Of a stretch of 64,000 bases of DNA, positions 25,387 through 41,341 are shown piece after piece. Under the pieces are notes generated by a model, which searched no databases, had not been told where the DNA came from, and was given only the letters and a program-made list of their open reading frames with translations. Source of the stretch: Polyangiales bacterium (lineage in GTDB: Bacteria; Myxococcota_A; Polyangia; Polyangiales; JADJQN01); the NCBI GenBank assembly GCA_964202905.1, contig CAXNJO010000002.1, positions 64,001 to 128,000 on the forward strand, read 5' to 3'. The first letter of the stretch is position 1. Each line of letters opens with the position of its first letter. The translations under genes and the position numbers were made by a program.

Positions 25387-27378
25387 CTAGGCCCCCGCGT
25401 CCGCGGCGTCGGCGTGTGCGGTCAGGAGCGCGACGAGATCCGCCATGATCGCGTCGAGCGCGAAGTCCTTCGGCGTGTAGACGCGCGCGACGCCCTGCGC
25501 GAGGAGCGACGCCGCGTCAGCGGGCGGGATGATGCCGCCCACGATGACGGGCGCCTCGACGCCCGCGGCCCGCAGCGCGGCCACGATCTCCGGGACGATC
25601 TGCCGGTGCGAGCCGCTCAGGATCGAGAGGCCCACGAGGTGCACGCCCTCCTCGAGCGCGCTCGTCACGAGCTGCGCGGGCGTGACGCGGATGCCCTCGT
25701 AGACGACCTCGAAGCCCACGTCGCGCGCCTTGATCGCGATCTGCTCGGCGCCGTTCGAGTGCCCGTCGAGGCCGGGCTTGCCGACGAGGAACTTCGGTCG
25801 GCGACCGAGGCGCTGCGCGAGCCGATCGAGCTCCGCGCGCAGGCGTGCCCGCTCCCCGGGCTGGCCCGCGTCGCCCGAGACGCGCGCGCCCGCGACGCCC
25901 GTCGGCGCGCGGTACTCGCCCCACAGTTCGCGGAGCACGCCGGCCCACTCGCCCGTCGTGACGCCCGCGTGCGCCGCGGCGATGCTCGGCGGCATCACGT
26001 TCTCACCGGCGCGCAGGGCCTCGCGCAGGGCGGCGAGCGCGGCCTGCGCAGCCCGTTCGTCGCGCGCGGCACGCCACGCAGCGAGCGCCTCGACGCGCTC
26101 GCGCTCGACGCCCGGATCGACGACCAGAATCGCGCCGTCGAGGTCGCGCGTGAGCGGGCTCGGCTCGCTCTCGCGGAAGGCGTTGAGGCCCACGACGATC
26201 TGCTCGCCGCGCTCGATCGCGCCGAGCCGCGCTGCGTTCGACTCGACGAGCCGCTGCTTGATGTAGCCGCTCTCGACGGCCTCGATCGCGCCGCCGCGCG
26301 CGAGCACGGCCTCCACCTCGCGCCACGCCTCGGCCTCGAGCGCCGCGACGCGCGCCCCGACGACGACGCTGCCCTCGAAGAGGTCGCCGTGCTCGAGCAG
26401 ATCCGTCTCGTACGCGAGGATCTGCTGCGCGCGCAGGCTCCACTGCTGGTCCCACGGGCGCGGCAGGCCGAGCGCCTCGTTCCACGCCGGCAGCTGCACG
26501 GCGCGCGCGCGGGCGTCCTTGCTGAGGGTGACGCTCAGCATCTCGAGCACGATGCGGAGGATGTTGTTCTCGGGCTGCTGCTCGGTGAGGCCGAGCGAGT
26601 TGACCTGCACGCCATAACGGAACCGGCGGTGCTCGGCGTCCGCGACGCCGTAGCGCTCGCGCGTGATGCGGTCCCACAGCGCGACGAACGCGCGCATCTT
26701 GCAGAGCTCGTCGACGAAGCGGATCCCCGCGTTCACGAAGAAGCTCATGCGCCCGACGACCTCGTCGAGCTCCGGCTGCGTGAGGCCGCGCGCGCGCACC
26801 GCGTCGAGCACCGCGATCGCGGTGACGAGCGCGTAGGCGAGCTCCTGCGCGGGCGTCGCCCCCGCCTCCTGCAGGTGGTAGCTGCAGATGTTGATGGGGT
26901 TCCAGCGCGGGATGGACTTCACCGTGTGGACGATGAGATCCGTCGTCAGGCGCAGGCTCTGCGCGGGGGGCAGGATGTACGTCCCGCGCGAGAGGTACTC
27001 CTTGACGAGGTCGTTCTGCGTGGTGCCCGCGAGCGACGCCGGGTCGACGCCGCGCTCCTCGGCGAGCGCGACGTAGAGCGCGAGCAGCCACGGGGCCGTC
27101 GCGTTGATGGTCATCGAGGTGTTCATCTTCTCGAGCGGCAGCGCGTCGAAGAGCGCGCGCATGTCGCCGAGGTGCGCGACCGGGACACCCACCTTCCCGA
27201 CCTCGCCGCGCGCGAGCGGATGGTCGGGGTCGTAGCCCGTCTGCGTGGGCAGATCGAAGGCGACGCTCAGCCCCGTCTGCCCCTTGCCGAGGTTCGTGCG
27301 GAAGAGCGCGTTGCTCTTCTCGGCCGTCGAGTGCCCCGCGTAGGTCCGCATGATCCACGGCCGCTCGCGCTTGGTCAT
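25387..27378 (-). CDS. ecm: Ethylmalonyl-CoA mutase (Ecm/MeaA)
   Basis: PWIMRTYAGHS (His where methylmalonyl-CoA mutase has Phe), FRYGVQVNSLGLTEQQPENN, and the B12-binding KPGLDGHSNGA. Confidence 0.93.
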   Translation of the reverse strand: MTKRERPWIMRTYAGHSTAEKSNALFRTNLGKGQTGLSVAFDLPTQTGYDPDHPLARGEVGKVGVPVAHLGDMRALFDALPLEKMNTSMTINATAPWLLALYVALAEERGVDPASLAGTTQNDLVKEYLSRGTYILPPAQSLRLTTDLIVHTVKSIPRWNPINICSYHLQEAGATPAQELAYALVTAIAVLDAVRARGLTQPELDEVVGRMSFFVNAGIRFVDELCKMRAFVALWDRITRERYGVADAEHRRFRYGVQVNSLGLTEQQPENNILRIVLEMLSVTLSKDARARAVQLPAWNEALGLPRPWDQQWSLRAQQILAYETDLLEHGDLFEGSVVVGARVAALEAEAWREVEAVLARGGAIEAVESGYIKQRLVESNAARLGAIERGEQIVVGLNAFRESEPSPLTRDLDGAILVVDPGVERERVEALAAWRAARDERAAQAALAALREALRAGENVMPPSIAAAHAGVTTGEWAGVLRELWGEYRAPTGVAGARVSGDAGQPGERARLRAELDRLAQRLGRRPKFLVGKPGLDGHSNGAEQIAIKARDVGFEVVYEGIRVTPAQLVTSALEEGVHLVGLSILSGSHRQIVPEIVAALRAAGVEAPVIVGGIIPPADAASLLAQGVARVYTPKDFALDAIMADLVALLTAHADAADAGA

Positions 27379-27448
27379 GCGTGCTTCGTACCCGCGCGCC
27401 TTTCGCCTTTCAAGAAGCCCACCAACCCCTTTCGAGGAGAGAGCCACC

Positions 27449-28750
27449 ATGTCGCCGCCATCGTCCACGAAGCGCCTCACGCCGCCTGAGAGCCCCGCCC
27501 TGCGGGTCGTCGAGACCCCGGCGATCGTGCCCATCGGTGCGCTGCCGCCGCTCGGCGTTGTGCCCGCGCGCATGCACGGCTACGCCATCCGGGCCGACCG
27601 ACAGGGCGAGCCGCTCGCGTCCTTCGTCAGCGAGGAGCTCCCGACGCCGGACCCGGGCTTCGGCGAAGTGCTGGTCCAGGTCATGGCCGCCGGCGTGAAC
27701 TACAACGGCGTGTGGGCCGGGCGCGGCAAGCCTGTGAGCGTGTTCGACATGCACGGACAGCCCTTCCACGTGCCGGGCTCGGACGCCTCGGGCGTCGTGT
27801 GGAAGGTCGGCCCCGGGGTGCGCGCGTGGAAGGTCGGCGACGAGGTCGTCCTCCACTGCAACCGCACCTGCGGGCAGTGCGCGTTCTGCAACGGCGGTGA
27901 GCCGATGTTCTGCCGCGCGCAGAAGATCTGGGGCTACGAGACCCCCGACGGATCCTTCGCGCAGTACACGATCGCGCAGGCGCAGCAGCTGCTCCCGAAG
28001 CCGCCGCAGCTCACGTGGGAGGAGGCCGGCAGCTACGCGCTCACGGCGTTCACCGCGTGGCGCATGCTGATGAACCGCGCGGCGCTGCGCCCGGGTGACG
28101 ACGTGCTCGTGTGGGGCGGCGCGGGCGGCCTCGGCGTCTTCGCGCTGCAGATCTGCAAGCTCGCGGGCGCGCGCGCCGTCGCCGTGGTGTCGAGCGACGA
28201 GAAGGCCGAGCTCGCGCTGCGCCTCGGCGCGCACGCGACGATCGATCGCCGCGCCTTCCCGCACCTCGCGTGGACGCCCGACGAGACGCCCGCGCAGACG
28301 AAGGCTCGCCTCGCGGACACCAAGGCCTTCGGCAAGCAGCTCTGGGAACACTTCGGCGAGCGCAAGGGACCGGACGTCGTCTTCGAGCACGTCGGGCAGC
28401 AGACCTTCCCGGCGAGCGTCTTCCTCGCGAACCGCGGCGGCCGCATCGTGATCTGCGGCGCGACGACGGGCTTCGCGCTGAACTTCGACGTGCGGCACCT
28501 CTGGATGCACCAGAAGTCCATCCTCGGCTCGCACTTCGCGAACGCCGGCGAGTGCGCCGCCGCGAACGCGATGTTCGTGCGCGGGCAGCTCGCCCCCGTG
28601 CTCACGGAGACCTTCACGTACGGGCAGATCCCGCTCGCGCACGACAAGATGGCGCGCAACCTGCTCCACGGGACGACCGCGTGCCTCGTCGGTGCGCCGC
28701 GCCCCGGGCTCCGCAACCTCGCGGAGACGCTCGCCGCAGGCCCCCGCTGA
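27449..28750 (+). CDS. ccrA: Crotonyl-CoA carboxylase/reductase
   Basis: AAGVNYNGVWA, GSDASG, IWGYET..GSFAQ, WGGAGGLG, LWMHQK and GSHFAN; RBS GAGGAG upstream. Confidence 0.93.
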   Translation: MSPPSSTKRLTPPESPALRVVETPAIVPIGALPPLGVVPARMHGYAIRADRQGEPLASFVSEELPTPDPGFGEVLVQVMAAGVNYNGVWAGRGKPVSVFDMHGQPFHVPGSDASGVVWKVGPGVRAWKVGDEVVLHCNRTCGQCAFCNGGEPMFCRAQKIWGYETPDGSFAQYTIAQAQQLLPKPPQLTWEEAGSYALTAFTAWRMLMNRAALRPGDDVLVWGGAGGLGVFALQICKLAGARAVAVVSSDEKAELALRLGAHATIDRRAFPHLAWTPDETPAQTKARLADTKAFGKQLWEHFGERKGPDVVFEHVGQQTFPASVFLANRGGRIVICGATTGFALNFDVRHLWMHQKSILGSHFANAGECAAANAMFVRGQLAPVLTETFTYGQIPLAHDKMARNLLHGTTACLVGAPRPGLRNLAETLAAGPR

Positions 28751-28773
28751 CCCCCCGCCCGAAGGACCGCGAC

Positions 28774-29838
28774 ATGACGATCGACCCCGCCCTCACGCAG
28801 GCCGCGCTCGCCCGCAACGAGGCCCTCGCCCTCCGCGACAAGGCCCGCCAGCTCGACCTCGACGCGCGCTACCTCGTGCAGATGGCGCACCTCACGACGC
28901 CCGCGACGGTGTGGAAGTACGTCGAGGGCGCCTGCACGAAGAGCGCCGCGAACCTCGTGATGCTCGACCTCGAGGACTCCATCCCGCGCGGCAACGACGC
29001 GCTCCTCGCGCAGGGCCGCGAGAACGTGATCCGGGCCTTCCGCGAGCTCGACTGGGGCAAGCGCCTGCGCTTCTTCCGCCCGCGCGGCCTCGAGCTCGAT
29101 CCGGGCCACGAGGACATCCAGACCATCGTCGGCGCGTGCGGCGCGCGCATCGATGGCCTCGTCTACCCGAAGACCGAGAGCGCGGACGAGGTGCGCTCGA
29201 TCGACGCCACGCTGACCGCGCTCGAGGCGCAGCACGGCCTGCCGCCCGGCGGCATCAAGATCGAGGTGCTCATCGAGAGCGCGGCCGCCGAGGAGCAGGT
29301 CTTCGAGATCGCGCGCGCGAGCCGCCGCCTCGTCGGGCTGGTCTTCGGCGCGTTCGACTACTGGGGCTCGCTCGGCATGGTGGGTGAGCCCTACACGACC
29401 GATCACCCGCTCGTGCAGCATGCGCGCGCGCGCATCGTGAAGGCCGCGGCGAGCGTGGGTGTGCCGGCCATCGCCGAGATGACGCTCAACTACCCGACGA
29501 AGGAGAAGTCGCCGTCGGAGCAGCAGGCCGCGCTCGACGAGTGCCGCGCGGACGCGCGCGTCGCGCGCCGCTTCGGCTTCGCCGGCAAGTGGACGGGCAT
29601 CCCGCAGCAGACGGCCATCGCGGTCGAGGTCTTCTCGCTGCGCGACGCGCTCATCGAGGAGGCCGTCGACGAGGCGCGCGCCTTCCTCGCCGCCGAGCGC
29701 GAGGGACGCGGCGCGGTGATGATCAAGGGCAAGATGGCCGACCGCGCGACCGACCGCATCAACCGCGTGACGCTCAAGACGGCGTACGCGCTCGGCCGCC
29801 TCGACGCGCAGACGGCCGCCGATCTCGGCATCCGCTGA
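28774..29838 (+). CDS. CitE/malyl-CoA lyase family (probable L-malyl-CoA/beta-methylmalyl-CoA lyase or thioesterase)
   Basis: MLDLEDSI, VYPK, LIES, FGAFDY, GFAGKW and GKMAD; located between ccr and mcd. Confidence 0.78.
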   Translation: MTIDPALTQAALARNEALALRDKARQLDLDARYLVQMAHLTTPATVWKYVEGACTKSAANLVMLDLEDSIPRGNDALLAQGRENVIRAFRELDWGKRLRFFRPRGLELDPGHEDIQTIVGACGARIDGLVYPKTESADEVRSIDATLTALEAQHGLPPGGIKIEVLIESAAAEEQVFEIARASRRLVGLVFGAFDYWGSLGMVGEPYTTDHPLVQHARARIVKAAASVGVPAIAEMTLNYPTKEKSPSEQQAALDECRADARVARRFGFAGKWTGIPQQTAIAVEVFSLRDALIEEAVDEARAFLAAEREGRGAVMIKGKMADRATDRINRVTLKTAYALGRLDAQTAADLGIR

Positions 29839-29852
29839 ATCGCCATTCAGCG
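29833..29852. promoter_or_regulatory. Palindrome CGCTGAAT-CGCC-ATTCAGCG (copy 2 of 5)
   Basis: Perfect 8-4-8 inverted repeat overlapping the lyase stop codon, upstream of mcd. Confidence 0.65.
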
Positions 29853-29885
29853 CCTCGATCGCCCCATTTTCACGAGGTCTTCGCG

Positions 29886-31505
29886 ATGTCCCTCTCCGCT
29901 GCGATCACCGCCCTCGACGACCTCTGCGCCCGCGCGCACGCGCGGCTCCGCGCGACGCTGCTCGTCGATGGCCGCGTCTCCGGGTCACGGCTCGACGACG
30001 CGCAGGTCGCCGCGCACGGGCTCGCCTACCTCGCGACGGAGGTCGCGACGTGCCGCGAGCTCGCCGCGTGGTCGGCCCGCACGGGCGGCGCGCAGGAGAC
30101 GCGCATCGCCGACGCCTACGTCGCCGACGTGCTCCGCGGCGCGCGCGCCGGCGTGTGGCTGGGCGCGTGCGAGACGGTCGGCACGAGCGAGCTCGGCCTC
30201 ACGCCGGGCGACCTCGACGAGACGGTGGGCACGGCTGCGCTGCGCGCGTGGGCCGACGAACACGCGAGCGCAGCGGCGTACCAGGCCATCGCGCGCGCCG
30301 CGCAGGAGGAGGGCTTCGGCGCGTGGGGCCTCGAGGACGCCACGCTCGAGGAGATCCGGAGCCAGTTCGCGAAGTTCACGAACCAGCGCGTGATCCCGCG
30401 GGCGCAGGACATTCACCGCCGCGACGTGCTCATCCCGATGGATCTCGTCGACGCGATGAGCGAGCTCGGCGTCTTCGGCCTCACCATCCCCGAGCACTAC
30501 GGTGGCCTCGGCCTCGGCAAGATCGCGATGTGCGTCGTCACCGAAGAGCTCTCGCGCGGCTACATCGGCGTCGGCTCGCTCGGCACGCGCGCGGAGATCG
30601 CCGCGGAGCTGATCCTCGGCGGCGGCACCGACGCGCAGAAGGCACGCTGGCTCCCGCGCATCGCCTCCGGCGAGGTGCTGCCGACGGCCGTCTTCACCGA
30701 GCCGAACTTCGGCTCCGACCTCGCGCACCTCGGCACGCGCGCCGAACGCCAGCCCGATGGCAGCTGGCGCGTCACGGGCGCCAAGACGTGGATCACGCAC
30801 GCCGTGCGCGCCGACCTGATGACGCTGCTCGCGCGCACCAAGCCGGACGACGCGGGCTACGGCGGGCTCTCGATGTTCCTCGCCGAAAAGACGCGCCAGA
30901 GCGGCGAGCCGGGCGTCCCCGAGTTCGTCGACGCGGGCCTCACGGGCACCGAGATCAAGGTGCTCGGCTACCGCGGGATGAAGGAGTACGAGCTCGCCTT
31001 CGACGGCTTCGCGGTCGGCGAGGACGCGCTCCTCGGCGACGCCGAGGGCCAGGGCTTCAAGCAGCTCATGCGCACCTTCGAGAGCGCGCGCATCCAGACC
31101 GCGGCGCGCGGCGTGGGCCTCGCGCAGGCCGCCCTCGACGACGCCTTCCGCTACGCGGGCGAGCGCGTCCAGTTCGGGCGCCCCATCGCCGAGTTCGGGC
31201 GCGTGCAGCGCAAGCTCGGCCGCATGATCACGCTCGTGATGGCCGCGCGGCAGCTCACCTTCTTCAGCGCGCGCATGAAGGACTCCGACAAGCGCTGCGA
31301 CCTCGAGGCGGGGATGGCGAAGCTGCTCGCGACGCGCGCCGCGTGGGAGTGCGCCGACGCGAACGTGCAGATCCACGGGGGCAACGGCTTCGCCGAGGAA
31401 TACACGGCCTCGCGCCTGCTGGTCGACGCGCGCGTGCTCTCGATCTTCGAGGGCGCAAACGAGATCCAGGCGCACGTCGTCGCGCGGCGCCTGCTCGAGG
31501 GCTGA
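29886..31505 (+). CDS. mcd: (2S)-methylsuccinyl-CoA dehydrogenase
   Basis: Acyl-CoA dehydrogenase with N-terminal extension (AAHGLAYLAT), EELSRGYIGVGSLGTR, AVFTEP, VLGYRGMKEY, FESARIQTAAR and IFEGA. Confidence 0.9.
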   Translation: MSLSAAITALDDLCARAHARLRATLLVDGRVSGSRLDDAQVAAHGLAYLATEVATCRELAAWSARTGGAQETRIADAYVADVLRGARAGVWLGACETVGTSELGLTPGDLDETVGTAALRAWADEHASAAAYQAIARAAQEEGFGAWGLEDATLEEIRSQFAKFTNQRVIPRAQDIHRRDVLIPMDLVDAMSELGVFGLTIPEHYGGLGLGKIAMCVVTEELSRGYIGVGSLGTRAEIAAELILGGGTDAQKARWLPRIASGEVLPTAVFTEPNFGSDLAHLGTRAERQPDGSWRVTGAKTWITHAVRADLMTLLARTKPDDAGYGGLSMFLAEKTRQSGEPGVPEFVDAGLTGTEIKVLGYRGMKEYELAFDGFAVGEDALLGDAEGQGFKQLMRTFESARIQTAARGVGLAQAALDDAFRYAGERVQFGRPIAEFGRVQRKLGRMITLVMAARQLTFFSARMKDSDKRCDLEAGMAKLLATRAAWECADANVQIHGGNGFAEEYTASRLLVDARVLSIFEGANEIQAHVVARRLLEG

Positions 31506-31515
31506 GCGCGCGCGA

Positions 31516-32393
31516 TCAGCGCAGCGCGTACTCGACGGGCAGGCGCAGCGCGCGTGTCTGCCAGGCGAGCGCCTCGGGCGGGGCCGGCACGTCGGCGAGC
31601 TCCTCGACGGACGCGAGCGCGGCGGCGTCGAGCGCCGCGTGCCCCGAGCTCTGGTCGACCGCGACGCGCGTGATGTGGCCGCGCGGGTCCACCGTGATCG
31701 AGATCAACACCGTGCCGCCGAGCCCCGCGCGGGCCGCCGAGCGCGGGTAGTTGCGGCTCGCGCGCTCGTGGACGAGGCGCTCGATCCGGGCCTTCCAGGC
31801 GAGCGCGAGCGCCCGGCGATCGACCGCGGGCGCCTGCCCGCCCGGCGCGCTGCCCGCCCCGCCCGGTCCCACGCCCGAACCACCGCGGCCGCCGCCGCCG
31901 AGCGGACCGCTGCGCGCCCAGCGCCGGTGCGCATCGCGCGGCTGCCGCCCGCGTCGCCGGCAACGCGCCGGCCGCGCCGGCCGCATCGGCCACGGGAGGA
32001 GACGATGCAGGCGCCTCGACGGCCGCCGCGGGCGCGGCACTCCGGGGCCGCCGGCGCGCTCGAGGGCGCGGGCGTGACGGCTCCGCGGCGCGGGGCGCGC
32101 GGGCCGCCGGGCGCGGCGCTTCGGCCACGGGCGCGCGCCTGCGGCTCGGCTGAAGAGGCCGGCCTCTCGCGCGGCGGCGGGGCCATCACGACGACCTCGA
32201 ACGACTCGTCCGCCGCGAGGCGCACTGCAGGCGCGCCGCCCGTGCCGCGCAGGACCAGAAAGAGCGCCGCATGCGCGACCGCGGAGACACCGACGAACCA
32301 CGCCCCGCGCGCCGCACGCGCAGCGTCGCGCGCGACCGCCGACGCGGGGCCGGACGCGAAGCGGGCGTTGTCGTTGGTGAAAGTCGTTTTCAA
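31516..32393 (-). CDS. tonB: Energy transducer TonB (two apparent frameshifts)
   Basis: N-terminal TM with SAVAHA (SxxxH), a Pro/Ala linker in a second frame, and C-terminal YPRSAARAGLGGTV...SSGHAALD in a third frame. Confidence 0.72.
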
Positions 32394-32530
32394 GAGCGTG
32401 AGCCGAAGGATGCCCTCGCCGTGCGCTCCGTCAAGGGGATCAACCCCTGGAAATGCCTGCTCCCGTGCGCTCGCGCAGGGGCCGCAGGGGCCGCTTGCCG
32501 ACGAGCCCGATCAACAAGCGCGGCCCGGGC

Positions 32531-34991
32531 TCAGAGCGTGTACGCGAAGCCGATCTGCGCCTGGAACGGCCGCACGGGACGCGCGCCGAACGGGCGCCGC
32601 GAACCGACGGACTCCTGGAGCAGCACGTTCTCGAACCGCAGCGTGAGATCCGCGTGCCGGAACACGCGCACGCGCCCCGTGAGGTCGAGCAGGTACTGCG
32701 CGTCGGTGCGCAGATCCGCGTCGCCCTGCCCCGCCTCCTCGCGCATCGCCGACACGACGCTCAGCGATGCCGCGGCCTGCCACGCGTCCTGCCGCTCGAC
32801 GCCCGCCTGCACGCTGAGCTGGTGCTCGGGGACGTACGGCAGCGCATCCCCGAGCTCGACCGCGCCGAACTGCGGGTTCTCGCTCTCGAAGGCGGTGCGG
32901 AACGACGAGCCCGTGTACGTGTACGCCGCACGCAGCGGCACCTCGACGTGCGCCCCTGCGCGCAGCGTGTGCGAGGCCGCGACCTCCGCGCCCCACACGA
33001 GGACGCGCCCGCCGTTGAACTGCCGATCGACGTCCATGCAGCCCGCGGCGAAGGAGCACTCGCCCGTGAGGTTCGAGTAGTCGTTGAAGAAGCCGATCGC
33101 CTCGAGCAACGAGCCGCGCGCCTCGTCCCGCCAGCGGACGCCGGCCTCGTAGTTGACGCTGTACTCGGGCCGGACTCGCCGCCGGCTGTCCGGGCGCGAC
33201 GGGGCTGAAGCCGCGGTTCACGCCGGCGAGGATCGAGACGTCGGCGCCGAGCGCGTACGACAGGCCGAGCCCCGGCAGCACCGCGACCTGCGTGCTGCGC
33301 GTGAAGGTCCCCGCGAGCCGCTCCCGCTCCGCGCCGTCGATGACCTCGAGCCGCGCGCCGGGCGTGACCCGCAGGCCCTTCCACTCGAGCGCCCAGCCCG
33401 CGTGCACGGCGAGCGCGAGCGCGAAGCGCCGCACGAGCGAGTAGCGCTCGGCCGCGTCGCCCGTCGGCACGAGCCGCCGCGCCTCCATCCAGTACGGCGT
33501 CACGGTCTGGTCGTAGTCGGCCTCGTCGTAGTGCAGCCGCGCGCCGAAGCGCACGTCGTGCGAGACCGACCCCGTGCGCGCCCGCACCCGGCCCAGCGAC
33601 TGCACGCCCTGCGAGACGAAGTCGCGCGCGTTGTTCGCGAGGTAGATGGCCTGCTGGGGGTCGGTGCGATCGGAGTCACTCGCGCCGGTGAGCACGTCGA
33701 ACGAGATGCGCCGCGCGCCGACGGGCGAGCGCAGCACGCCGAGGGTGTCGATGTCGTTCCCGATCCGATCGAAACGCTGCCAGGTGCGCGACATGCCGTG
33801 GCGGTAGCCCGTCGTCGTCAGCTCGAACCGATCCCCGACGAGCAGGCGGTGGACGAGCTGCACCTGCGTCCGGTTCCACGCCATGCGGTCGAGCTGCGTG
33901 GCCGCGTAACGGCGCCAGGAATCGGCGCGGAAATCCGCGTCGGAGAGGCCGAGGTACGTCTCGCTCGAGATCTCGCGCCCGTAGCCGAAGCGCACGTCGA
34001 GGCGCTGCGCGACGCGCGCGTCCTGATCGGTCTGCACGCGTCCGCGCAGCACGAACTCGGTGCGGGAGAAGCCCGTGGGATCGTCGCTCCCGTCGATGCG
34101 CTTGAAGCCCTCGCTCTGCACGTGCGCGAGCTCCGCGAGGAAACCGCCCCACGCGTTGCTCGCGCCGTAGTGCAGGTGCGCGCGGCCGTATCCGAACGTG
34201 CCCCCCGTCAGCTCGAGCGCACCCGCCGGCGCGTCGGGGATGTCGCGCGAGGTCAGGTCGAGCGCACCGCCGACGGTGTTCGGGCCGTAGAGCACGGCCG
34301 CCGGGCCCTTGAAGACCTCGACGCCGGTCATGCGCATCATCAGCGGGAAGTAGTAGGCCGCGGGCGCGCTGTACGGCGCAGGACCGAAGAGCACACCATC
34401 TTCCATGAGGGTGATTTTTTTCGAACGCTCGGCGCTGCCGCCGCGGATGCCGATGTTGGGACGCAGCCCGAAGCCGTCCTCCGTGCGCACGTAGACGCCC
34501 GGTGCCTGCGTGACGACCGTCGTCGGGTCGTCGTAACCGAAGCGGCGGAGCTGCCGCTCGTCGAGGCGCGTGACGGCGCCGCTCGTGCGGAAGCGGTCTT
34601 CGTCGTCGTACTCGATCCGCAGCCCGCGCAGCGCGAGGTCGTCGTCCGCGAGCGACGCGTCGCCCGGTGCCGGTGGCGTGGTCGCGGCGTCCTCCCCGGC
34701 CGCGCCGCCCGCGGGCGACGCGCCCCCACCGAGCAACGAACGACCGTCGTCGAAGATGTCGCCGAGGCCCTCGCCGCCGCCGGCGTCGGGCTCCGCCTCG
34801 ACCGTGCCTTCGGCGGGAGGCGCGGCCTCCGTCCCGGGTACGCCTGCGTCCGCCGGTGCGACGACCCCCGCGTCCTGCGCGCGGGCGCCGCGCGGCGCGG
34901 CGAGCAGACCGGCGAGCGCACCAACGAGCGCGAGCGCGAGGGGACGCGCGGGCCGCGGACATGAACGATCATTCAGCGACGGCGCGGTCAT
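32531..34991 (-). CDS. TonB-dependent receptor, FecA-like (+1 frameshift at about 33175)
   Basis: Signal peptide, plug EDGFGLRPNIGIRG, EVFKGP..YGP..VGG, and a C-terminal beta-strand IGFAYTL. Confidence 0.88.
34961..34976. promoter_or_regulatory. Palindrome ATGAAC-GATC-ATTCAG (copy 3 of 5), inside the receptor 5' end
   Basis: Coincides with the rare A/T-ending codons AAT GAT CGT TCA TGT on the coding strand. Confidence 0.55.
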
Positions 34992-36488
34992 TCGCGTTCT
35001 CCGAGGGCGACGGGGATGGACGTCAGGGTGGACGGGGGCGCCGCGCGCAGGCCGCGCGGACGCCGGAGCCGGATGGGGGGATCGGGCGGCGCCGGGAGGA
35101 TCCACGACGCGGGCGCGAGGGAGTCCTCGACGCGCGTGAGATCGACGTCCGGGTCGATGAGGCGCGCCGCGGCACGGCCGTTGAGCGACGCGAGCGCATC
35201 CGCCCGCACCTCGACGTCACGGTGCCCCGCCGCGCGCAGCTCGGTCGCGACGTGGTGCGCGAGCTGCAAGACGAGGTCGGGCTGCGTGCCCATCTCGCGC
35301 TCCTGCGCGCTCGTCAGGTACCGCCGCGGCGACACGATGCGCTCGCGCGCGTCGCCGTCCATGCGCACGCGGAACGACACGCTGCCGTTCTTCTCGCGCA
35401 CCATCACGCGCCACGACCAGCGCATGCCCTGCTCGTGCCAGAGCACGTCGCCGCCGTAGAGCGTGCTCCGCAGCGGCAGCGCGACCTGCACAACGCAGTA
35501 CGCCGCGAGCAGCCCCTGCGCCGCCGCGCGCAGCGCCGGATGCGCGAGCGGCGACACCCCGGGGCCGCGCACGTCGAAGGCGTCGAGCGCGCGCGGCGCG
35601 AGGCGCTGCAACCACCGGCGGGGCCACGAGGGCTCGAAGAACACGCTCGCGGCGACGACCATGATCAGCGGGAACATCCCTATCTGGAAGAGCACGCCGA
35701 CCGCTCCGTGGAAGAGCAGCGCCGCGAGGTACGCGAGGCCGCGCGTGCGACGGATCGAGAGCCACAGCGGCAGCGTGAGGTCGTAGAAAAAGCCGCCCCA
35801 GCTCATCGCGAGCGCGACGGCCGGCACGTCGAGCCACGCCCCCACGAGCGGCAGATCCGTGCGCGCCGCGAGCCAGATGCCGAGCGGCTGGCCGTGGATC
35901 AACCAGTCGGGCTGGAGCTTCGCGAGTCCCGCGCCGACGTAGACGACGCCGACCTGGAAGCGCAGCAGCCACAGCATCCACCGTGGGAACGACGCGACGC
36001 GCAGCGCGGGCCGCAGCCCGCGCATCGAGCGAGCCCGCGCGGTGCAGCGGCAGCACGGTGAGCAGCAACGCGAGCAGGCTGACGAGGTAGTAGTGGTTGA
36101 GGTAGTTCGTGACGTCGACGAGCTCGAGATACGTAAAAAGCAGGAAATACAGCGGCGCGGCGAGCCGGTACGCGAAGCCCAGCGCGACGCAGGCAGCGAG
36201 CACGGCGAGCACGACGAAGGCCGTCGTCGTCCACGGCTCGGGCAGCGCCTGCACCCAGCCGAACCCGAAGTAGCGGAAATGGAAGGTCGGCTCGACGTAC
36301 ATGCGCGCGACCCAGCCGCTCGCGAGAAAGCGCACCGCCGCGACGACCCCGAGTACGCCGAACATCACGCGGAAGGCGACGAGCGACGCCGGATCGATCG
36401 GCGTCGCGGCGTGCGTCGCGAGCGCGCGCCACCGCGCGCCCCACGGGCCCGTCGTCTCGCTGCGCGGCGCTCCGACGCTCGTCCGCAT
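34988..36488 (-). CDS. HTTM/vitamin K-dependent gamma-carboxylase-like membrane protein (+1 frameshift at about 36018)
   Basis: LVAFRVMFG, YLNHYYL, VYVGAGLAKLQPDW, FH...LFQIGMFP, WHEQGMRWSWRVMVREK and SLNGR. Confidence 0.88.
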
Positions 36489-36500
36489 CGCGACCGCGCG

Positions 36501-37727
36501 TCAGTCGTTGTCGGCGTCGAGCCGGTTCGGCAGCTCGAGGTCGAGCACCGTGAGGAACTGCGTCTTCTGCGCGTCCGTGAGCGCCTTGACCGCGTCGTAC
36601 GCCGCGACGAAGGCCGCCTGCCCCGCCGCGTTGCCGGGCGCGAGCGCCTCGTCGAAGGTGCCCGGCACCGCGTCGACGGCCGCGAGCGCCGCGGCGAGCG
36701 CGGCGCGCATCGTGGCCGCGAGCGCGCCCGCGCCCACCTCGACGAGGAGATCGTCGAAGCCGTACGCCTCCGTGCCGGCCGGCGCGCCGAGGAAGAGCGC
36801 CTCGAAGCCGCGCAAGTTCGCGCGCACGCTCTCCTTCGACGCGTGCGCGACAGGCGCCTCGAGGAGCTCGGGACACGTCATCGCGACGCAGTCCGTCGAG
36901 AGCCCGCCCGGCGCCGCGAGCTTCATGTCCTTCACGGCCTCCTCGAGGTAGAGCATCGCGTCGGACACCGCGTTGAGCCCCGCCTGACTCGAGGAGAAGA
37001 GCGCACTCGTCGTGCCCGCGCTCGAGAGCTGCGTGACGAAGCCGCCCTGCGACGGCTCCCACGCGGCGACGAGCGCATCGGCCGCTTCACGGACGAGCCG
37101 CGCAGCCTCACGCGCATACGCCGCGCGCCGCGACGCGACCTCCGCGTCCCCGAGCGCCGCCCAGCTGCCATCCGTATTGAGGGTGCTGAGCGGCGCGCAC
37201 GCGTTGCCAGCATCGGCGCGGAAGAGCAGATATTCGAGCGCGCCGAGGCCACGCGCGTTGACCGCCTCGGCCGCGAGCGCGCCGGGCGTCTCCCACACGC
37301 GCGCGACCGTCTCCTGGTCGACGCGGCACCGGTTCACGAGCGGCCACGCGTAGATCTCGTCGCGCAGGTCCAGGCCGCCCGCGACGCTGAGGTTCATCCC
37401 CGCGGGCCCGAGGCTGTGCAGCTCCGCGCGCTGCCAGACCTCGTTCGCGGCGCGCCAGGCCGCCTGCGCCGCGGCGCGCTCCGCCTCGCTACCGCTGCCC
37501 GCCCACTGCGCGCTCGCTGCCTCGAGCGCCGCGGCACGCGCCGCGAACTCGCGGTAATTCGGGAGCATGACGCGCTCGGCGAGGCCCGCGACGAGCATGC
37601 GCCGGGCTGGGTCGTCGACGGGCGCCGGAGCCGCCGAATCACACCCTGCAATCTGCACGATCGACCATGAAAACAGGCCGATCCGCGAGATCATCCGCGC
37701 GCTGCGCCAGTTCATCGCGGCGGCCAT
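36501..37727 (-). CDS. Imelysin family lipoprotein
   Basis: Lipobox IAG-C, AQAAWRAA...WQ, IYAWP, RGLGALEYLLF, KDMKLAAP and C-terminal DADND. Confidence 0.85.
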   Translation of the reverse strand: MAAAMNWRSARMISRIGLFSWSIVQIAGCDSAAPAPVDDPARRMLVAGLAERVMLPNYREFAARAAALEAASAQWAGSGSEAERAAAQAAWRAANEVWQRAELHSLGPAGMNLSVAGGLDLRDEIYAWPLVNRCRVDQETVARVWETPGALAAEAVNARGLGALEYLLFRADAGNACAPLSTLNTDGSWAALGDAEVASRRAAYAREAARLVREAADALVAAWEPSQGGFVTQLSSAGTTSALFSSSQAGLNAVSDAMLYLEEAVKDMKLAAPGGLSTDCVAMTCPELLEAPVAHASKESVRANLRGFEALFLGAPAGTEAYGFDDLLVEVGAGALAATMRAALAAALAAVDAVPGTFDEALAPGNAAGQAAFVAAYDAVKALTDAQKTQFLTVLDLELPNRLDADND

Positions 37728-39237
37728 CACCAGCCTCCCGTGCCGTCGTCCGCGCCGAGATTCGCGGCGTCGAAGCCATACGCCGCGCCGAGCAGCGCGC
37801 GCGCCTCGAGGAGCTTCGTGCGATACCCGTCCCGCTCGGCGGGTGTCGCCGTCGCGAGCACGGGCGCGTCGCCGAGCAGCGTGTGCAGCTGTGCGAAGCG
37901 CGCACCGTCGAGCGGCGAGCGTGGATTGAACTGAAAGCCGAGTGCGAGGCCCTTCAGCTCCGACCAGTGCGCCGCGTGATCCGCGAAGACGTACTCCGGC
38001 GCATCGAATCGTCGCATGTCGACGAGCACCTCGTTCAGATAGTGGACGGCGCTCGCCGCGAGCGCGCGCTCCCACGCACCGACGATGCGGTCCCGCTCGA
38101 CGACGAGCGCGGCGAACTCCTCGTCCGTGAGCGTCTCGCCTGCGGCCGCGATGAGCGCGCGCCCGCGCTTGAAGGCGTCGAAGGCCTCGCCCGAGAAGTC
38201 CGTGCGCGCCGCCGTCACGCTGCCGTGATCGCGCTTGCCGGCGTACACCGCGGCGCCGCAGTTCGCCTCGCGCGTGAGGTCGATGCGCCCGTCGCCGTCC
38301 GTGTCGTGGTAGCCGGACGCATACCCCGCGCGGCCGCCCTCGCCGCCGAGTTCCTCGGCGCTGTAGTCGCCGAGGTCGTGCGCGCCGCCCCAGTAGCCGA
38401 AGCCCTCGTCCCACGCGTGCTCGAGCACCGTGTACGGCGCGTCGCCGTCGCGCGTGTTGGGTGAACGAAGCCCCTTCCCTGCGACGTCCGAGTCGAGGTA
38501 GTCGTCCGCGCCCTGCGAGAACGACACCGCGCCGAGCAACAGCTTCTGCACGAGCTCCTCGAGGTCGAGCCCGCTCTCGGTGAGGTGCGCCGGGAGCGGC
38601 GCGCCGCTCGGATCCGCAGCCGCGACGCGCTCCATGCCGTTCGCCTGCTCGACCGCCTGCGCCGCGAGCGTCGCGAAGAACGCGGTGAGCAGCCCCTCGG
38701 GGCTCGTCGTTGCGCCACCGGGCGCCGCGATCGCGGGGTCCGACCAGCCACGGAAGGCCGTGGACCAATCGACGTGATCCGTGACCGTGTCGTTGCCGGC
38801 GAGTTTGTCGCGCAGCGGCTTGTTCGGCGCGAGGTCGTTCCACGTCTCCTGGAGCGCGGGCGGCGTCGTCGCGAGCGCGAAGCGGTCGTCGCCGTTCGAG
38901 GCGCCGTCGAAGCGGTAGTAGTAGTCGAGCGTTGCGAGCACTTCGGCCTCGGTGCCCGGCGTGAAGGTGCCCGCGTCGATGCGCGCGGAGATCCCGCCGA
39001 TGAACGCGCGCGAGGTCGGCAATGAGCACCTGCCGCGCGGCCTGGCCCGCGTAATCGACGCTGCTCCGCGTCGGGCGCGAAGCGGCTCTCGAACGCGTAG
39101 CGCGTGGGCACCGTGGGCGGCCCGGCGTCCGGCGTGACCGGCGGCGCATCGCCCTCGCCGCACGCCCCGAGCACGAGCGCGCATCCGGTGAAGAAGACCA
39201 CCGGGCGAGCCATCGCGAACCGACGATGTGACTGCAT
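37727..39237 (-). CDS. DUF4856-like acidic lipoprotein (two +1 frameshifts at about 39067 and 39010)
   Basis: Lipobox LGA-C, PTRYAFESR, SSVDYAGQAAR, QKLLLGAV and YTVLEHAWDEGFGYWG. The start codon is uncertain (39237 or 39213). Confidence 0.75.
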
Positions 39238-39283
39238 GCCGCCTCTCCCGGCTCCTTCCATGGGAGCCCGTCCACTATCGTTC

Positions 39284-39300
39284 CTGAAAATCATTTTCAG
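39284..39300. promoter_or_regulatory. Fur box-like operator
   Basis: Perfect 8-1-8 palindrome CTGAAAAT-C-ATTTTCAG, close to the Fur 7-1-7 consensus TGATAAT-N-ATTATCA, about 45 bp upstream of the uptake operon. Confidence 0.8.
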
Positions 39301-39440
39301 TAAGGGCCCTCGGAGAATTAGCGGGCGCCCCGCGGGGTGTCAAGCGCGCGCCCGCGCACGGCGCCGCTGCATGCGCCAGCGTCGTCGACGCAGTGCGTCG
39401 AAACCCATGCGAACATGGGCTCCGCGCGCTCCGCGCGGTG

Positions 39441-39529: not shown

Positions 39530-41341
39530 ATGACGACGGCTCCCACGACCGCTCCCTCCCCTGCGCCTGCGACGAGCAACCAAGCCCTGCTCGACTGGGT
39601 GAGCACCACGGCGAAGCTCACGAAGCCCGACCACATCGTGTGGTGCGACGGCTCGGAGGAAGAGCGCCGCCGCCTCACGGAGCTCGCGGTGTCGACGGGG
39701 GTGCTGCGGCCCCTCGACCCGAAGAAGCGCCCCGGCTGCTTCCTCAGCTATTCGAACCCGAACGACGTCGCGCGCGTCGAGCACCTCACCTTCATTTGCA
39801 CGCCGACCAAGGCCGAGGCCGGCCCGACCAACAACTGGATGGCGCCCGCGGACGCCTACGCGAAGCTGACGCCCCTCTTCGACGGCGCGATGAAGGGCCG
39901 CACGATGTACGTGGTCCCCTACGTGATGGGGCCGCTCGGCTCGCCGTTCTCGAAGGTCGGCGTCGAGATCACCGACAGCGTCTACGTCGCGTTGAACATG
40001 CGGATCATGACCCGCATGGGCCGCGCCGCGCTCGACATGCTCGGCGAGTCCAACGACTTCAACCGCGGCCTGCACTCGACGCTCGACCTCGATCCGGAGA
40101 AGCGCTTCATCTGCCACTTCCCCGAGGACAACACGATCTGGAGCGTCGGCTCGGGCTACGGCGGGAACGTGCTGCTCGGCAAGAAGTGCCTCGCGCTCCG
40201 CATCGGCAGCTACCTCGGCAAGAAGGAGGGCTGGCTCGCCGAGCACATGCTGATCCTCGGCGTCGAGTCGCCCGAGGGCCAGGTCAGCTACGTCGCCGCC
40301 GCCTTCCCGAGCGCGTGCGGCAAGACGAACTTCGCGATGATGATCCCGCCGCGCCGCTTCGAGGGTTGGAAGATCTGGACGGTCGGCGACGACATCGCGT
40401 GGATGCGCGTCGGCGAGGACGGCCGCCTCTGGGCCGTGAACCCCGAGCACGGCTACTTCGGCGTCGCGCCAGGGACGAGCATGTCCTCCAACGCGAACGC
40501 CATGAAGACGGTCGCGAAGGACACGCTCTTCACGAACGTCGCGCTCACGAGGGACAACGACGTGTGGTGGGAGGGCGTCGACGGCGAGGTCCCCGACGAG
40601 CTCATCGACTGGAAAGGCCAGCCCTGGAAGAAGGGCTCGACCGAGAAGGCCGCGCACCCGAACTCGCGCTTCACATCCCCCATCACCAACAACCCGATGC
40701 TCTCGCGCGAGTGGGACAACCCCGCCGGCGTGCCGATCAGCGCGATCATCTTCGGCGGCCGCCGCGAGGGCACCGTGCCGCTCGTGCTGCAGAGCTTCAA
40801 CTGGGTGCACGGCGTCTACCTCGGCGCGACGCTCGGCTCGGAGACGACCGCGGCCGCGACGGGCAAAGTCGGCGTGCTCCGCCGCGACCCGATGGCGATG
40901 TTGCCGTTCTGTGGCTACGACATGGGCACGTACTTCGGCCACTGGCTCGCGATGCGGCACCGCATCCAGAACCCGCCGAAGATCTTCCTCGTCAACTGGT
41001 TCCGCAAGGACGAAGACGGCAAGTTCGTCTGGCCGGGCTTCGGCGAGAACATGCGCGTCCTCAAGTGGATCGTCGACCGCGCGCGCGTGCGCATCGGCGG
41101 ACTCGAGACGCCGGTCGGCTGGATCCCGCGGCAGGGCGACGTCGACCTCTCCGGGCTCGACATCTCCGCGGAGCGCTTCGAGCTCGCGACGCGCGTCTCG
41201 CCGAAGGAGTGGATGGCCGAGCTCGACAACCACGGCGCGTGGTTCGACTCGCTCGGGCCCACCGTGCCCGACGCGCTCCGCAAGCAGCGCGAGTTGTTGA
41301 TGGCGGCGATGGCGACGCACCCGGACGTCGCGGGCGCCTGA
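39530..41341 (+). CDS. pckG: Phosphoenolpyruvate carboxykinase (GTP)
   Basis: DVARVE, GSGYGGN, LLGKKC, WLAEHM, FPSACGKTN, VGDDIAW, AHPNSRF and DPMAMLPF. Confidence 0.97.
   Translation: MTTAPTTAPSPAPATSNQALLDWVSTTAKLTKPDHIVWCDGSEEERRRLTELAVSTGVLRPLDPKKRPGCFLSYSNPNDVARVEHLTFICTPTKAEAGPTNNWMAPADAYAKLTPLFDGAMKGRTMYVVPYVMGPLGSPFSKVGVEITDSVYVALNMRIMTRMGRAALDMLGESNDFNRGLHSTLDLDPEKRFICHFPEDNTIWSVGSGYGGNVLLGKKCLALRIGSYLGKKEGWLAEHMLILGVESPEGQVSYVAAAFPSACGKTNFAMMIPPRRFEGWKIWTVGDDIAWMRVGEDGRLWAVNPEHGYFGVAPGTSMSSNANAMKTVAKDTLFTNVALTRDNDVWWEGVDGEVPDELIDWKGQPWKKGSTEKAAHPNSRFTSPITNNPMLSREWDNPAGVPISAIIFGGRREGTVPLVLQSFNWVHGVYLGATLGSETTAAATGKVGVLRRDPMAMLPFCGYDMGTYFGHWLAMRHRIQNPPKIFLVNWFRKDEDGKFVWPGFGENMRVLKWIVDRARVRIGGLETPVGWIPRQGDVDLSGLDISAERFELATRVSPKEWMAELDNHGAWFDSLGPTVPDALRKQRELLMAAMATHPDVAGA

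Follow-up and report, generated by a model that had tools for sequence, protein, structure and literature searches.

The 64,000-nucleotide stretch of a Polyangiales bacterium analysed here (contig CAXNJO010000002.1, positions 64,001 to 128,000; hereafter the window, to whose numbering all positions refer) contains an operon that combines an imelysin lipoprotein with a homologue of human GGCX, the gamma-glutamyl carboxylase that depends on vitamin K; this homologue is an HTTM protein with a VKGC lumenal domain. The elements follow in the order Fur-type box, DUF4856, imelysin, HTTM/VKGC, TonB-dependent receptor, second box and tonB, and the five gene identities proposed for these places by an earlier reading of the same DNA (the first-pass annotation) were confirmed by Pfam as DUF4856, imelysin, HTTM with VKGC_lumenal_dom, TonB plug and barrel, and TonB_C. 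This operon represents a real, widespread and probably Fur-controlled iron module, and we hold with considerable confidence that the imelysin is the functional partner of the enzyme in it. Far more tentative is the reading that we favour for the reaction itself, a menaquinol-, O2- and CO2-dependent carboxylation of an Asp in the imelysin tail that would create a malonate-type iron ligand. It is favoured because a single clade of enzymes pairs with the tailed imelysin, because the catalytic set is kept in that clade and the pocket loop in the window enzyme, and because the tail Asp residues are the sole invariant acids of the partner.

Conservation of the enzyme-imelysin pair

The neighbourhood survey bore out the claim that the HTTM gene is conserved in such surroundings, as it gave 85 imelysin-linked homologues, all in one clade. 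Within the order, 25 of 61 genomes have PF22777, and among 36 relative loci the imelysin is directly upstream of the enzyme in 31, nearby in another arrangement in three and absent from two, one of which is a 3-kb contig. In the Bacteroidota sample (PF22777 in 32 of 151 genomes), 28 of 36 loci have the order imelysin-HTTM-receptor, with DUF4856 in front in 25 of those, and 29 of 29 imelysins matching the profile up to the tail adjoin the enzyme; in six further genomes the imelysins do not match as far as the tail, and the four of these that were inspected are all beside DHOR. In the phylogeny of 127 proteins, 85 of 85 imelysin-linked enzymes fall into one clade (SH support 99, 86 rows, the remaining row being one short contig) and none of the 31 imelysin-free ones is inside it. 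Both enzyme trees were made with FastTree and carry SH support only, and the distant second HTTM gene of the genome (C9), loci with a match below 380 aa and the duplicate L074 were left out.

The constant neighbour of the enzyme is a GxxxxE imelysin. Thus, of the four-gene unit of HTTM, imelysin, DUF4856 and receptor that had been proposed, the imelysin stands as constant, whereas DUF4856, which 37 of 85 loci have, is optional. The receptor is present in 52 of 79 paired loci, DHOR being found in 26 of the same 79. Two operon types carry the enzyme, namely DUF4856-imelysin-HTTM-receptor, as in the window, and HxxE-imelysin-DHOR-imelysin-HTTM. The pairing spans Myxococcota, Bacteroidota, Spirochaetota, Actinomycetota and one gammaproteobacterium, which, along with the two operon types, the invariant catalytic set and the cofitness of the slot-mate DUF1513 with its operon (bioRxiv 072470), argues against the idea that the enzyme is merely co-regulated or serves the imelysin as a membrane dock without catalysis. 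We regard that alternative as improbable, even though 12 Leptospira-type genomes have the enzyme gene outside the operon and there are DUF4856 operons without it.

The same counts bear on the version of the first-pass annotation, carboxylation of Glu/Asp on the two lipoproteins, here widened to include the receptor and taken to proceed in the manner of a Gla domain. Both lipoproteins are indeed acidic (D+E 49 against K+R 28, and 66 against 33), and E236, D240, E241 and E390 of DUF4856 are conserved. However, two lipoprotein substrates are unlikely, since DUF4856 is missing from most loci; the receptor is not constant either, the conserved DUF4856 acids sit in helices of a well-folded model, and DUF4856 operons without the enzyme exist. 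This is the least probable of the readings considered.

Besides the imelysin-linked clade, a sister group of imelysin-free HTTM-VKGC proteins (L080, L083, L087, L100, L104, L113, L117, L200 and others) from Nannocystis, Planctomycetota, Saprospiraceae and others has mostly H395, M401 and K402, and several members lie, as judged by eye, beside DUF1559-like prepilin-type genes; it may represent a different substrate class. A search for natural fusions gave two long matches among 8000 candidates, of which the HTTM-receptor one, a single contig with an internal receptor signal peptide, is likely a read-through and was rejected.

The imelysin and its Asp-x-Asp tail

The window imelysin, the sole one found in the host genome, has a Peptidase_M75 domain (E 2e-34) with GxxxxE in place of GxHxxE. 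Enzyme-adjacent imelysins are of this His-less IPPA type, the family with GxxxxE defined in PMC3143127, with His in only 4 of 80 aligned. An exact C-terminal Asp-x-Asp is found in 79 of these 80, and the alignment has no invariant acidic columns besides the two tail Asp (80 of 80), which suggests Asp rather than Glu as target; of the two residues named by the first-pass annotation, Asp is thereby retained and Glu is not. An extra Asp at -5 is present in 48 of 79 HTTM-linked tails, that of the window included, and in none of the 24 Pseudomonadota tails printed. PMC3143127 describes the final six residues of crystallised IPPA as disordered; an acidic tail of such flexibility would suit a substrate that has to reach into a pocket in the membrane as well as a simple metal site.

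Fold and active site of the GGCX-like enzyme

The three HTTM motifs that had been matched by eye to human GGCX hold up, as the window protein aligns with it in both halves (phmmer E 7e-18 and 5e-14). The structural comparison that had been suggested was run with the intact homologue L054, whose AlphaFold2 model (pLDDT 94) finds GGCX in Foldseek with E 1.5e-21 and superposes on it with TM 0.79-0.83 across the top 14 matches (e.g. PDB 9bvq, 9l21). The fold is shared over the whole bacterial protein, and K218, D263, W223, N159, H160, F286, F294 and F299 are kept, the equivalents of the quinol-activating K218, W223 and D263 lying in the motifs AGLAKLQPDW and FFYD. In the 85 imelysin-linked enzymes, N159, H160, K218, W223, D263, F286 and F294 never vary, and all but one of them (84) keep F299. 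In GGCX, K218 deprotonates the quinol, K217 not being catalytic, N159, H160 and Y395 hold the Glu carboxylate, and F299, in a CO2 pocket with F294, stacks CO2 (PMC12647623, bioRxiv 2025.02.09.637231), with Y395 required for carboxylase activity (PMC12647623). The window enzyme retains region 374-418, a pocket loop that epoxidase-type viral homologues are described as lacking (PMC13486548).

However, the window enzyme differs from GGCX by K217A, N158L, Y395M, G396R, M401V and R436M, as mapped by sequence alignment, so that the Glu-dipeptide anchoring set Y395, M401, N158 and R436 is not kept. Position 401 is V in 85 of 85 imelysin-linked enzymes and M in 30 of 31 imelysin-free ones; position 395 is Y in 32, F in 27 and M in 24 of the 85, and H in 25 of the 31; N158 is replaced by L and R436 mostly by M throughout the imelysin-linked clade. 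The V401 and Y/F/M395 changes suggest a distinct substrate. Furthermore, the alignment ends at residue 508 of the 758 of GGCX, homologues being about 430-505 aa long, and hence the C-terminal propeptide-binding domain is absent. We infer from these residues that the window enzyme would perform quinol chemistry like that of GGCX, the features of Glu-peptide recognition not being kept. Genes for a menaquinone route, MqnA/MqnD-family members of the futalosine pathway, are present in the genome, as are VKOR genes. Bacterial GGCX homologues are described as widespread with catalytic residues kept (PMC12647623), and MloH is the only one with an assigned substrate in the literature searched.

Two further kinds of HTTM protein were observed. 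A second HTTM gene of the genome (G000:C9:29527-30294, L070) is distant, without a VKGC lumenal domain and without an imelysin, and in HTTM-VKGC proteins of 760-840 aa (L130:8983-13700, L132 and L136) a large insertion splits the lumenal domain, L130 having a tandem pair.

Fur boxes and iron response

The Fur-type palindrome said to head the operon is present and has no mismatch to the core of WTGAAAATNATTTTCAW, the published deltaproteobacterial dFUR consensus (PMC545781); a second box, ahead of tonB, had been missed. These are the two sites found genome-wide (5.68 Mb, 73% GC) within two mismatches of the 15-bp palindrome core, and two Fur-family genes are encoded in the genome. Another AT-rich perfect 8-1-8 palindrome, GATTGAGAATCTCAATC (G000:C14:28145-28161), is possibly the operator of a second Fur-family regulator. 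In relatives (L034-L136), Fur-like boxes, mostly at operon heads, accompany 32 of 57 imelysin-linked loci as against 0 of 34 others, a count in which two matches in AT-rich loci may be due to chance.

A cluster of like gene order in Riemerella anatipestifer, the consecutively tagged RAYM_09794-09779, is listed as hypothetical protein, imelysin, vitamin K-dependent gamma-carboxylase and receptor and is up 2.1-3.1 without iron (PMC5609570, Table 4), with fur-mutant ratios of 1.36-1.93 (PMC5609570). It is an expression-table listing without mechanism, and RAYM_09794 as DUF4856 is deduced from gene order. Together with the box counts, this iron induction supports the claim of a conserved Fur-boxed iron module. 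The induced genes B739_0173-0176 (PMC5429918) were not used, because they cannot be linked to this operon by name, and PMC9478572 mentions an imelysin in passing. In the full-text literature, whose coverage does not extend to subscription journals and supplements that may bear on the matter, no paper was found for HTTM with imelysin or for DUF4856, one table for imelysin with vitamin K-dependent, one preprint for DUF1513, and no mechanistic description of the module.

Observations against tail carboxylation and alternative readings

Several observations weigh against carboxylation of the tail. In the pocket, Y395 is M in the window and lost in 53 of 85 imelysin-linked enzymes, and N158 and R436 are lost as well; the catalytic residues do not name the substrate, because they are kept outside the imelysin clade too. 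Few of the myxobacterial DUF4856-type operons have the -5 Asp (2 of 11), and counts among kin are not independent. Ferric ion gave no thermofluor stabilisation of recombinant IPPA, as reported in PMC3143127, a null result compatible with a missing modification, the protein being recombinant.

To the same side belong the unrelated proteins found in the slot of the enzyme. In the Pseudomonadota sample, where 26 of 121 genomes have imelysins and 25 of 30 inspected loci carry the tailed type, DUF1513 follows 24 of the 25 tailed imelysins and the tail is equally conserved without the enzyme; PF22777 is found in one of the 121 genomes, outside the imelysin clade. In two myxobacteria, DUF1513 adjoins DHOR together with an imelysin of the tailed type, and DUF1513 was found neither in the host genome (94.5% complete) nor in HTTM-imelysin loci L034-L203. 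Of 250 Gammaproteobacteria, four have the DUF4856 operon, one with HTTM and three with a fatty-acid-hydroxylase-family gene in its stead, which has intact His boxes and once directly follows the imelysin; the same replacement is seen in one myxobacterial locus. The active site of that family faces the cytoplasm (PMC13486548), which is awkward for a shared substrate. Since three unrelated proteins (HTTM, DUF1513 and a di-iron hydroxylase) share one slot with the tail unchanged, the tail does not depend on HTTM and carboxylation cannot be the sole way to make such a system work.

The last group of adverse points comes from Spirochaetota, in which 15 of 121 genomes have HTTM, 15 of 15 inside the imelysin clade, and three keep the operon. 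In the 12 others, of Leptospira type, no imelysin lies within 1.5 kb of the enzyme gene, the distance being 35-40 kb in the two measured, and a LipL41 gene is nearby. The Leptospira enzyme reportedly epoxidises vitamin K without carboxylating Glu substrates (Rishavy et al. 2005); Leptospira-type enzymes, possibly the assayed one among them, nest in the imelysin clade, and their genes differ in having left the operon. If the reported result is right, the clade keeps the O2 chemistry, and the natural acceptor was probably never offered.

This nesting of a seemingly epoxidase-only enzyme, the loss of Y395 and the filling of one slot by three unrelated proteins, whose shared job may be redox, favour the main alternative, a quinol-linked redox step without CO2 fixation, which is doubtful in itself and yet nearly as likely as tail carboxylation. 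Here the tail would bring Fe(III) to the quinol site for reduction and release to FeoB, or quinol oxygenation would supply an oxidant or base; the operon itself has no permease or ABC transporter, and FeoB is encoded elsewhere in the genome. It leaves aside, however, that none of the N159/H160 carboxylate pair, the F299 that stacks CO2 and the lumenal loop has been lost and that DUF1513 is an exported propeller without a membrane quinone site. Epoxide turnover would moreover drain menaquinone, because most bacterial VKORs are described as lacking epoxide reductase activity (PMC4555120), and any role with a high turnover would face the difficulty of recycling the epoxide.

An unlikely further possibility is that a small molecule or lipid head group handled by the imelysin and the receptor, such as an Asp/Glu-containing chelator or an amino-lipid, is what the enzyme carboxylates or oxygenates. 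The absent propeptide domain would agree with it, as would the metabolite intermediate used by MloH, the weak resemblance of the replacing hydroxylase to the ornithine-lipid hydroxylase OlsE (54.6 bits, cut-off 475) and the viral epoxidase-desaturase fusions that tie both families to lipids (PMC13486548). Against it, no recurring biosynthetic gene was found in the neighbour clusters of imelysin-linked loci, and the invariant protein tail would be left unexplained.

Two observations on the slot proteins are added. In the myxobacterial contig L102:1-10329, an imelysin-DHOR-DHOR-imelysin-HTTM operon stands back to back with a tailed imelysin and a di-iron hydroxylase, and the space separating the two holds two perfect Fur-type boxes. 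In DUF1513 (L208:2578-3690), five motifs containing His are invariant across the 12 members aligned, and there is a weak feature similarity to methanethiol oxidase/SBP56 (0.86), suggesting a metalloenzyme.

Operon layout and frameshifts in the assembly

The coordinates are given in Table 1. As had been described, gene ends overlap or nearly abut, with TGATG at 37727, a 12-bp gap before 36488 and ATGA at 34991. A TonB gene does follow about 140 bp after the receptor; its TTG start is doubtful, since it falls within the second box. The by-eye promoter was not chosen by a consensus promoter scan.

Table 1. Features of the operon in the window.
Feature	Position	Strand	Description	Basis
Fur-type operator	39284..39300	.	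perfect 8-1-8 palindrome CTGAAAAT-G-ATTTTCAG; core = dFUR consensus WTGAAAATNATTTTCAW	
Possible promoter	39315..39342	-	TTGACA-17-TAATTC, just upstream of operator	by eye
DUF4856 lipoprotein	37727..39237	-	lipobox LGAC; conserved EHxWDE and HxxSE motifs; frameshift near 39063	Pfam
Imelysin lipoprotein	36501..37727	-	IPPA/PA4372-type; GLGALE; C-terminal DADND; intact reading frame	Pfam
HTTM + VKGC lumenal domain protein	34988..36488	-	GGCX homologue, ~465 aa; frameshift near 36030	Pfam, phmmer
TonB-dependent receptor	32531..34991	-	frameshift near 33150; weak plug-level match to FecA	Pfam plug + barrel
Second Fur-type operator	32377..32393	.	2 mismatches to core; ahead of tonB	genome scan
TonB	31516..32393	-	frameshifted; start uncertain	Pfam TonB_C

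Four of the five operon genes are frameshifted in the assembly, the imelysin alone being unbroken, and the HTTM motifs YLNHYYL and AGLAKLQPDW are therefore in different frames. Short-read contigs bridge the breaks in HTTM (35882-36137; 0 substitutions, 1 gap), DUF4856 (39032-39312; 0 substitutions, 1 gap) and the receptor (32951-33638; 5 substitutions, 1 gap); these contigs have a depth of about 4-5, come from a single study, possibly the source of the assembly, and cover three breaks, that of tonB not among them. With one gap at each bridged break and close homologues intact, the frameshifts in these three genes are best read as indicating assembly errors.

Divergent from the operon is a GTP-dependent phosphoenolpyruvate carboxykinase gene (39531-41341), the intergenic region with the box being common to both. 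On the other side, at 25387-31505, are genes of the methylmalonyl-CoA mutase, zinc dehydrogenase and HpcH/citrate-lyase families and acyl-CoA dehydrogenase genes, a set that we take to resemble an ethylmalonyl-CoA pathway cluster.

DUF4856 and the receptor

The all-helical model of a DUF4856 homologue has a pLDDT of 93, and the EHxWDE and HxxSE motifs suggest metal binding. Neither a PDB sequence match nor a Foldseek match was found. VIA gave a generic four-helix bundle alone (best Z 10.6, rmsd 2.4, 102 aligned), with imelysins unlisted, kinship still being possible; hhalign matched the signal peptide alone (probability 24.8), and DUF4856 as a remote imelysin is not supported by these results. 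Language-model similarity of DUF4856 (L054:1693-3090) to algal Fea1 low-iron proteins is 0.84-0.86, below 0.9, and one cluster holds both families; Pfam (36 members) and a family search in five genomes gave no backing for this kinship. P0123 is a 1117-aa protein with two DUF4856-like stretches. FecA-like receptors had been invoked for the operon, a likeness that does not go beyond the weak match in Table 1, as homologue L038 scores 80.8 bits against a cut-off of 1100 for the FecA NCBIfam equivalog and falls outside that family.

Proposed mechanism and relation to known systems

In the proposed mechanism, iron starvation would lift Fur repression of the operon, the receptor and TonB would carry iron across the outer membrane, and DUF4856 would serve as an optional capture protein. 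K174, corresponding to K218 of GGCX, would deprotonate the quinol, with O2 yielding a strong base, while N115/H116 would hold the Asp carboxylate and F256 the CO2; the carboxylated Asp-x-Asp tail would then be a malonate-type iron ligand. That Asp can be an acceptable substrate is indicated by MloH, which carboxylates Asp (as cited in bioRxiv 2026.08.19.745780 and PMC12647623). Most speculatively, DUF1513 and the di-iron hydroxylase would arm the same tail with a different ligand, for example hydroxy-Asp by hydroxylation, which would explain the three-way swap. The broad proposal that in at least five phyla a menaquinol-dependent carboxylase turns the imelysin Asp-x-Asp into a tethered siderophore-like ligand, with DUF1513 and the hydroxylase as convergent means of arming it, is put forward as a possibility that we do not rate as probable.

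As judged from gene content, the module is a variant of imelysin iron operons with the GGCX-like enzyme in the DUF1513 slot. It shares Fur control, the GxxxxE imelysin and a DGD-type tail with imelysin-DHOR operons of the Pseudomonas aeruginosa PA4370-PA4373 type, as these are described in PMC3143127 and bioRxiv 072470, and many HTTM homologues are in imelysin-DHOR-imelysin-HTTM operons with HTTM in the DUF1513 position. The window differs in having DUF4856 and a receptor for the HxxE imelysin and DHOR, and HTTM for DUF1513; no DHOR is among its operon genes, no genome-wide DHOR search having been made. MloH of malonomycin biosynthesis (Law et al. 2018, as cited) is likewise a bacterial vitamin K-dependent carboxylase acting on Asp, the likeness being one of described activity only, but its substrate is a polyketide synthase-nonribosomal peptide synthetase (PKS-NRPS) intermediate. 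No PKS/NRPS cluster was found in the scanned flanks of the window, which hold the phosphoenolpyruvate carboxykinase, an MFS transporter and acyl-CoA enzymes.

By logic alone, the module can also be likened to MbnP/MbnH, in which the ligand of a receptor-linked copper protein is made from Trp by conversion to kynurenine through a neighbouring di-heme enzyme. There, too, a receptor-linked metal-binding protein obtains its ligand from a neighbouring oxidative enzyme; the metal, the residue and the type of enzyme differ.

For a large GGCX-like clade, the search is thus narrowed to a single constant partner with two residues as candidates, and therefore a single mass-spectrometry experiment can test bacterial vitamin K-dependent protein carboxylation. 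The function of bacterial and Leptospira GGCX homologues becomes directly testable, the same test being suited to the Leptospira enzyme, and the exchange of HTTM, DUF1513 and a di-iron hydroxylase hints at a step in the common imelysin iron operons that awaits explanation. Should the proposal be true, it would establish a vitamin K-driven protein modification in bacteria, an iron-related counterpart of Gla chemistry, and would identify what the Leptospira enzyme naturally acts on.

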